64,000 bases of DNA from Escherichia coli (GTDB lineage Bacteria > Pseudomonadota > Gammaproteobacteria > Enterobacterales > Enterobacteriaceae). The notes under the pieces were generated by a model. The model was not told the DNA's origin. It ran no database searches and saw only the letters and a program-made list of their open reading frames with translations. The stretch lies in the NCBI RefSeq assembly GCF_009931435.1, contig NZ_CP043414.1; one strand, written 5' to 3'. The translations under genes were made by a program, and so were the position numbers. This document shows positions 9,549-9,800 of the stretch, piece after piece (position 1 is the stretch's first letter; each line of letters begins with the position of its first letter).

Positions 9549-9588
9549 GTCGGCTCCTTGAAAATGATATGAAACATTGCATTTCATA

Positions 9589-9606
9589 TTGCATAAAGGA
9601 TGCCAG
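9589..9606 (-). promoter_or_regulatory. sigma54-type (-24/-12) promoter candidate upstream of hyfA
   Basis: Minus-strand sequence CTGGCATCCTTTATGCA has GG and GC elements at the consensus TGGCAC-N5-TTGCA spacing, about 40 nt upstream of the hyfA start. Confidence 0.6.
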
Positions 9607-9800
9607 TCTGATTAATTTAATATATTCAATAAGTTATGTGTTAACTGGATTCTGAACGGTACAAAAATGATGGTCATTAACGTTCAGCAATAAATGGATT
9701 CGACACCCGTGTCGCAGGGGAAAGCGAGAATGTGATCTTGATCACGAGAAGTGAGGTGTGCTGGCCGCAAGCGCAGCCAGCACTGAATGGAGCAAAGTAA

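Follow-up and report, generated by a model that had tools for sequence, protein, structure and literature searches.

The promoter of the hydrogenase-4 (hyf) operon of Escherichia coli was reportedly characterised experimentally between 2002 and 2004, in the studies of Skibinski (2002) and Self (2004). In that work, expression of hyf is said to have required sigma-54 and cAMP-CRP; FhlA reportedly activated it, and plasmid-borne HyfR did so strongly. Primer extension (Skibinski et al. 2002, J Bacteriol 184:6642) reportedly placed the transcription start 30 bp upstream of hyfA. Sigma-54 ChIP-seq in MG1655 located an intergenic sense site, OS23, with its peak at 2599175 and a fold-above-threshold of 16 (Bonocora et al. 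2015; PMC4591121). The motif of OS23 is given as ATGGCATCCTTTATGCA and its downstream gene as hyfA; it carries the flag C, denoting a promoter experimentally confirmed in EcoCyc, and Table 1 of that study sets the predicted start 31 nt from the hyfA gene start (PMC4591121). In gSELEX-chip, the signal in the bcp>hyfA spacer peaked at 92% of the maximum with RpoN holoenzyme alone and at 100%, the highest in the genome, when NtrC was present (PMC8743547). The RegulonDB list of sigma-54 promoters includes hyfA (PMC3118216). RpoD holoenzyme also gives a gSELEX peak in this spacer (PMC3946193), as does RpoH holoenzyme (3.1 against a cut-off of 3.0), thus gSELEX by itself does not discriminate between sigma factors at this spacer; binding evidence that does so comes from the anti-sigma-54 ChIP-seq. 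The main text of two genome-wide sigma-54 papers (PMC2831329, PMC4551910) makes no mention of hyf. Beyond E. coli, activity of the homologous hyf promoter is lost in rpoN and fhlA mutants of Proteus mirabilis (PMC7658346), and deletion of hyfR in Pectobacterium leaves FHL-2 activity very low, nearly abolished (PMC7384014). The E. coli promoter, hyfAp, is therefore already known, being found in EcoCyc/RegulonDB and by ChIP-seq and gSELEX. That transcription of hyfA depends on rpoN is indirectly supported by the EcoCyc flag, by the title of Skibinski 2002 and by the Proteus rpoN mutant.

We analysed a 64,000-nt stretch of DNA (the window) in which positions 9549-9800 are exactly the 252-nt intergenic spacer between bcp and hyfA, both genes lying on the minus strand. 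The window comes from the E. coli chromosome. Among complete E. coli genomes, 5,424 of 5,426 match a 701-nt query taken around the element described below, and the genes annotated beneath the match are bcp and hyfA. The bcp coding sequence occupies 9801-10271 (minus strand) and that of hyfA, the first gene of the hyf operon, 8931..9548 (minus strand; RefSeq annotation of near-identical strains), its ATG at 9548..9546 agreeing with the RefSeq annotated start. A Shine-Dalgarno sequence for hyfA, AAGGAG, sits at 9554..9559 on the minus strand; CAAGGAGCC is conserved in an alignment of eight bcp-linked spacers (alignment A1, described below). The genes hyfB to hyfH run on after hyfA to window position 1. 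The window starts within hyfH, so hyfI and hyfJ also fall outside it, and hyfR and focB were correctly said in the original prediction to do so. The hyfA part of the query was matched in 4,297 of the 5,426 genomes; around 1,100 match the bcp third only, from which it follows that hyf is missing or replaced beside bcp in about one fifth of strains. We note some differences between the window strain and strain WL297. The two are 98.5% identical, with a segment of about 2 kb replaced after 49,864; at this eutR-hemF junction (49864-50300) the window has about 0.4 kb and WL297 about 2.4 kb, the latter carrying TPR-repeat and T6SS immunity (Tli3-family) genes, a variable island. For hyfG (window 547-2262), 1,716 nt are annotated in WL297 and 1,668 nt in an MG1655 derivative, a 48-nt difference of gene length or of start-codon choice.

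The sigma-54 core promoter in the spacer reads CTGGCATCCTTTATGCA and lies at 9590..9606 on the minus strand, where it was located by pattern match, scores 12.2 bits and corresponds to the K-12 ChIP-seq site OS23, from which it differs only at the flanking first base (C for A). All of the E. coli binding data come from the K-12 allele, which has A where the window strain has C, 5′ of TGG. The -24 GG is at 9604-9603 and the -12 GC at 9592-9591, giving the canonical GG-N10-GC spacing. The original prediction had described a GG/GC architecture with correct spacing at about 9589-9606, about 40 nt before the hyfA start; the architecture and spacing are confirmed, the element is located at 9606..9590 and its 3′ end is measured to be 42 nt upstream of the hyfA ATG. 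Fourteen of the sixteen consensus positions (TGGCAC-N5-TTGCA) are matched. The other two are T instead of C at position 6 and A instead of T at position 12, both tolerated in the Barrios matrix of 186 promoters (43/186 and 13/186 respectively; PMC7658346). The exact match to the degenerate pattern spans 9590-9605. A direct repeat of ATGCAAT was also observed here, its copies (9594-9588 and 9582-9576) being 12 nt apart.

The weight matrix used for scoring sites is built from 186 promoters and was taken from PMC7658346. For the degenerate pattern TGGCAYNNNNNWTGCW the expectation is 0.68 matches per window and at least one match occurs in 46 of 100 shuffles, while the strict consensus with two mismatches allowed gives 28 matches in the window against 30.9 expected. 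A score of 12.2 bits ranks sixth among 127,970 window positions and shuffled windows contain a mean of 7.4 sites as good. The five sites in the 64-kb window that score above the hyfA element all lie within genes. As a sequence, then, the -24/-12 match by itself is at chance level. The position is another matter. Defining as promoter-competent any position that is intergenic, co-oriented with and 20-250 nt upstream of a gene, there are 4,067 such positions in the window, and the hyfA element is the sole site of at least 9 bits among them. Sites of at least 12.2 bits are expected about 0.24 times over these 4,067 positions and 0.014 times in the bcp-hyfA spacer alone. The significance of the hyfA element comes from its position and not from the motif match. 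The scan with a sigma-54 weight matrix that the original prediction had suggested as a check is thus favourable in part: it singles out the element as the only promoter-competent site of at least 9 bits, but the score of 12.2 bits is at chance over the window as a whole. Matches to the matrix were also seen inside hyf genes, in the sense direction in hyfD (13.6 bits, 5102-5117, minus strand) and hyfF (12.4 bits, 2772-2787, minus strand) and antisense in hyfA (12.95 bits, 9439-9454, plus strand). These are probably chance matches, since the main text of PMC4591121 names hyf once, for the hyfA promoter.

With HyfA as the query, 45 loci of other species were retrieved, 42 of which were usable as loci of hyfA/hycB homologues. 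A sense-strand site of at least 12 bits is present within 300 nt upstream of the homologue in 29 of the 42, and the antisense and coding controls each gave 0/42. The GC element sits 40-85 nt ahead of the start codon in the homologous loci. Of the 13 loci lacking such a site, seven belong to hyc-type operons, as a hycA-like ORF immediately upstream shows; in these seven a site of 14-17 bits is found 566-627 nt upstream, ahead of the hycA-like ORF, bringing the total of operons headed by a sense-strand sigma-54 site to 36 of 42. For closer comparison, alignment A1 comprises the spacers of the window, K-12, four Citrobacter and two Kosakonia, with bcp upstream in all eight. It reveals separate conserved blocks amid an otherwise diverged spacer. 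One of these is the promoter itself: TGGCA..TT.TGC is invariant over Escherichia, Citrobacter and Kosakonia, and the Citrobacter element, ATGGCATCCTTTGTGCA, lies at the same distance as that of E. coli. Within E. coli, the 38-nt core carries zero to two differences in 3,781 complete genomes (804 carry the window allele, 2,844 a single mismatch and 133 two). A search for sigma-70 promoters, requiring at least 9 of 12 hexamer positions matched and hexamers 16-18 nt apart, found no sites in 9400-9900. Taking these results together, we identify the element, with something close to certainty, as hyfAp, the sigma-54 promoter that heads hyfABCDEFGHIJ, the hydrogenase-4 operon of E. coli (hyfR and focB lying beyond). 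The original assignment of a sigma-54 promoter to hyfA accordingly agrees with ChIP-seq site OS23, with gSELEX, with RegulonDB, with the 36 of 42 loci and with the lack of a sigma-70 consensus.

The transcription start is predicted at 9578..9579 on the minus strand. The start reportedly mapped 30 bp upstream of hyfA (Skibinski 2002) we take to be window position 9578. The rule used in PMC4591121, which places the start 19 bp downstream of the motif centre, gives 9579, 31 nt before the hyfA ATG. The GC then occupies -13/-12 and the predicted start is consistent with the -12 element on which the original prediction was built. The sequence AAYGTTT at the start site (9578-9572) is conserved in alignment A1. 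We also observed an inverted repeat, ATATGAAAT-N5-GTTTCATAT (9567-9589, minus strand), which straddles the predicted start and overlaps the ATGCAAT direct repeat. The repeat is E. coli-specific, and of its two arms just the 3′ one would enter the transcript; either coincidence or a role as an operator-like DNA site may account for it. A 5′-UTR hairpin formed from this repeat was considered and rejected for want of significant structure, the transcribed part having z = +0.9 and the full repeat z = -1.3.

Further upstream, the palindrome CGACACGGGTGTCGA (CGACAC-N3-TGTCG) lies at 9700..9714 on the minus strand, its centre about 128 nt upstream of the start. Alignment A1 shows no variation at CGACAC..TG.CG.A within it. 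All of 30 loci carry the word CGACA/TGTCG upstream of the sigma-54 site, with 73 occurrences against about 16 expected from coding DNA; control words showed no enrichment in the same test. In Escherichia, Citrobacter, Kosakonia and Atlantibacter the word holds a fixed offset of about -108 from TGG, and the motif is found in Atlantibacter and also in Uliginosibacterium. Enumerating exact palindromes over the loci gave genus-specific arrangements only, the word enrichment being more informative. Both CGACACGG and GTGTCGAA are common to the hyf spacer and the hypA-hycA FhlA enhancer region. Conservation and word enrichment point to the palindrome as a probable enhancer (UAS) for an activator of the FhlA/HyfR type. 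The published FhlA matrix scores hyc-hyp at 16.1 bits, the palindrome at 5.0 bits and the best position in the spacer at about 10 bits. These low scores indicate that hyf is without a canonical FhlA site, which would fit weak activation by FhlA and a preference for HyfR. A direct repeat, CGACAC-N6-CGACAC, with 12-nt spacing was seen in the enhancer region of Citrobacter and one Kosakonia (loci L005-L009, at about 2339-2365). E. coli has the inverted pair in place of the direct repeat, and a single T/C difference interconverts the two arrangements.

Nearer the promoter there is an invariant 16-nt block, TGACCATCATTTTTGT, at 9661..9676 on the minus strand, which is exact in all eight sequences of alignment A1 (E. 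coli, four Citrobacter and two Kosakonia) while its flanks diverge. A sigma-70 promoter with a non-conserved -10 has been assigned in silico at this place (ATGACC-17-CAGAAT; PMC3946193), and its -35 overlaps the block. One tentative reading, to which we give rather less than even credence, is that the inverted CGACAC-N3-TGTCG pair and this block (TGACCATCAYTTTTGT, 9661-9676) may together form a module that departs from the FhlA standard, serves HyfR specifically or another regulator and is limited to those hyf operons that are linked to bcp in Escherichia, Citrobacter and Kosakonia; doubtful as it is, such a module would explain both the weak FhlA activation of hyf and the near-silence of the operon in E. 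coli. A CRP-like palindrome, cGTGATCAAGATCACA, is located at 9731..9746 (no strand assigned). It matches TGTGA-N6-TCACA with one mismatch, is perfect in the four Citrobacter species of alignment A1 and belongs to a class of sites, those with one mismatch, of which there are 5 in the window against 1.9 expected. An EcoCyc-based enrichment table in a Dam-methylome paper lists the hyf unit as regulated by CRP-cAMP. From its sequence, its conservation and the EcoCyc listing, the palindrome probably adds cAMP-CRP control. It is also the best match to the FhlA matrix in the spacer, a weak one at 9.9-10.3 bits. It was rejected as an FhlA site: it misses C4 and G11 of the matrix, reaches about 10 bits where the positive control reaches 16, and is a perfect CRP site in Citrobacter. 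The palindrome holds two Dam (GATC) sites (GATCAAGATC), which could be protected from methylation if a protein occupies it. The Dam-methylome paper was set aside as evidence of GATC occupancy, as it holds just the EcoCyc enrichment table and no site-level data for the spacer.

Between enhancer and promoter is an IHF-like sequence, ATTCAATAAGTTA, at 9624..9636 on the plus strand, with one mismatch to WATCAANNNNTTR. ATAAC-N3-TTGA is conserved at this block in alignment A1, and its place is one at which a bend would favour looping. The assignment to IHF is tentative, as the consensus occurs at chance level in the window (48 matches against 45.6 expected). At the far end of the spacer, directly after the bcp stop codon, a GC-rich hairpin was identified by fold energy at 9758..9783 (minus strand); it has 11 bp and a folding energy of -22.9 kcal/mol (z = -5.2) and none of 200 shuffles was as stable. 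Citrobacter and Kosakonia have other sequences at this position, each with an inverted repeat of its own. No T-run follows the hairpin and the terminator scan makes no call for it; it is a likely barrier to read-through from bcp. The terminator scan made no call elsewhere in the spacer and no Rfam family was found in it.

We considered whether sigma-54 polymerase might be bound at this site and rarely activated in E. coli, leaving a poised or silent site or a roadblock with hyf unexpressed. Most sigma-54 sites found by ChIP-seq are transcriptionally inactive under the conditions tested (PMC4591121), the title of Self et al. 2004, as cited in PMC7658346, calls hyf a 'silent operon', and replacing the hyf promoter by Phyc or T5 still gave no hydrogen from Hyd-4 (PMC7654741). 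Consistent with such a view are also the roughly 1,100 of 5,426 complete E. coli genomes without hyfA beside bcp and the lack of a canonical FhlA site in the spacer. Against this stand the conservation of the whole promoter architecture over genera, which argues for selection on regulated transcription, the EcoCyc flag marking an experimentally confirmed promoter, and the hyf promoters of Proteus and Pectobacterium, which are active and depend on rpoN/fhlA or on hyfR. On balance we regard a silent site as improbable. It differs in degree and not in kind from the reading of the element as hyfAp, the identity of which is unchanged.

The remaining alternatives would take transcription away from the -24/-12 element and both are much less probable. 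Were hyfA transcribed mainly from the sigma-70 promoter ATGACC-17-CAGAAT (9677-9672/9654-9649) or by read-through from bcp, the -24/-12 match would be incidental, and the motif alone is indeed at chance level. In favour, that hexamer pair is given for the bcp>hyfA spacer in the RpoD-holoenzyme gSELEX screen (PMC3946193), the -35 overlaps the invariant 16-nt block, bcp runs in the same direction as hyfA and the hairpin after bcp has no T-run. The hexamers, however, were assigned in silico and match the consensus at only 4/6 and 4/6 positions (8/12), and hence fail the 9-of-12 scan; neither Citrobacter nor Kosakonia keeps the -10 CAGAAT; and the hairpin after bcp is very stable. Anti-sigma-54 ChIP-seq directly shows occupancy of the -24/-12 element, and the sigma-54 site is kept in 36 of 42 loci, with none in the controls. 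We consequently think it highly unlikely that sigma-70 or read-through provides most hyfA transcripts; a weak sigma-70 promoter could nevertheless exist alongside the sigma-54 promoter without displacing sigma-54. The repetition of ATGCAAT, with its two copies 12 nt apart, raises the further idea that the TGCA of the second copy (9582-9576) is the -12 element and that the start lies about 12 nt further downstream. We find this scarcely credible, because from GG at 9604-9603 to GC at 9580-9579 there would be 22 bases where sigma-54 requires 10; moreover, conservation of the second copy does not extend to Citrobacter or Kosakonia and the ChIP-seq motif call takes the first TGCA.

Returning to hyfAp, a plausible course of events can be outlined. 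Sigma-54 RNA polymerase binds 9606-9590 and forms a stable closed complex, a step that ChIP-seq and gSELEX have shown for K-12. Remodelling by an AAA+ activator through a DNA loop is established for the sigma-54 class, and we infer that it applies to hyf DNA. The closed complex should be incapable of opening alone, an AAA+ activator bound upstream being expected to drive it to the open complex by ATP hydrolysis. This activator would be FhlA and/or HyfR, the genes for both of which are outside the window, with 9714-9700 as its likeliest site. Looping is probably aided by IHF at the conserved A/T-rich block at about 9636-9624, although this suggestion is a weak one, and an input from cAMP-CRP is probable at the palindrome 9746-9731, judging by sequence, conservation and the EcoCyc listing. 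The hyfA transcript would then begin around 9579/9578, with 30-31 nt ahead of the ATG. The locus serves as a positive control, in that a reader without tools was able, by sequence and context, to identify a real sigma-54 promoter correctly. The call was right through position and prior knowledge and not through unusual motif statistics. The conserved architecture of the spacer (palindrome, CRP-like site and 16-mer) could guide work on the poor expression of hydrogenase-4 in E. coli.

Comparison with known systems places the locus as follows. In the hyf/hyc operons of other Enterobacterales (Proteus mirabilis, Pectobacterium), as in E. coli, the sigma-54 site is 40-85 nt before the first gene and TGTCG/CGACA lies upstream. 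The spacers are unalignable beyond Escherichia, Citrobacter and Kosakonia, and the number and arrangement of TGTCG words vary by genus. Within the E. coli formate regulon, hycA/hypA resemble hyf in having -24/-12 cores, genes for formate hydrogenlyase and TGTCG/CGACA enhancer words. The hypA-hycA FhlA enhancer reads TGTCGatgaTGTCGaaatGACACgTCGACACGGCGACG and contains the canonical direct-repeat site TGTCGATGATGTCG (16.1 bits), whereas hyf has only the inverted pair (5.0 bits). The CRP-like palindrome and the invariant 16-mer are features of the hyf spacer that are not evident at hyc-hyp. Compared with hyfAp of K-12, the window differs at the base preceding TGG (9606), which is C and not A, and reads ttaaatt for ttgagtt, two changes near 9612-9616. 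Otherwise the K-12 promoter occupies the same locus with the same order of bcp then hyfA, shares the 16-nt core TGGCATCCTTTATGCA and lies at the same distance from hyfA as the promoter in the window.
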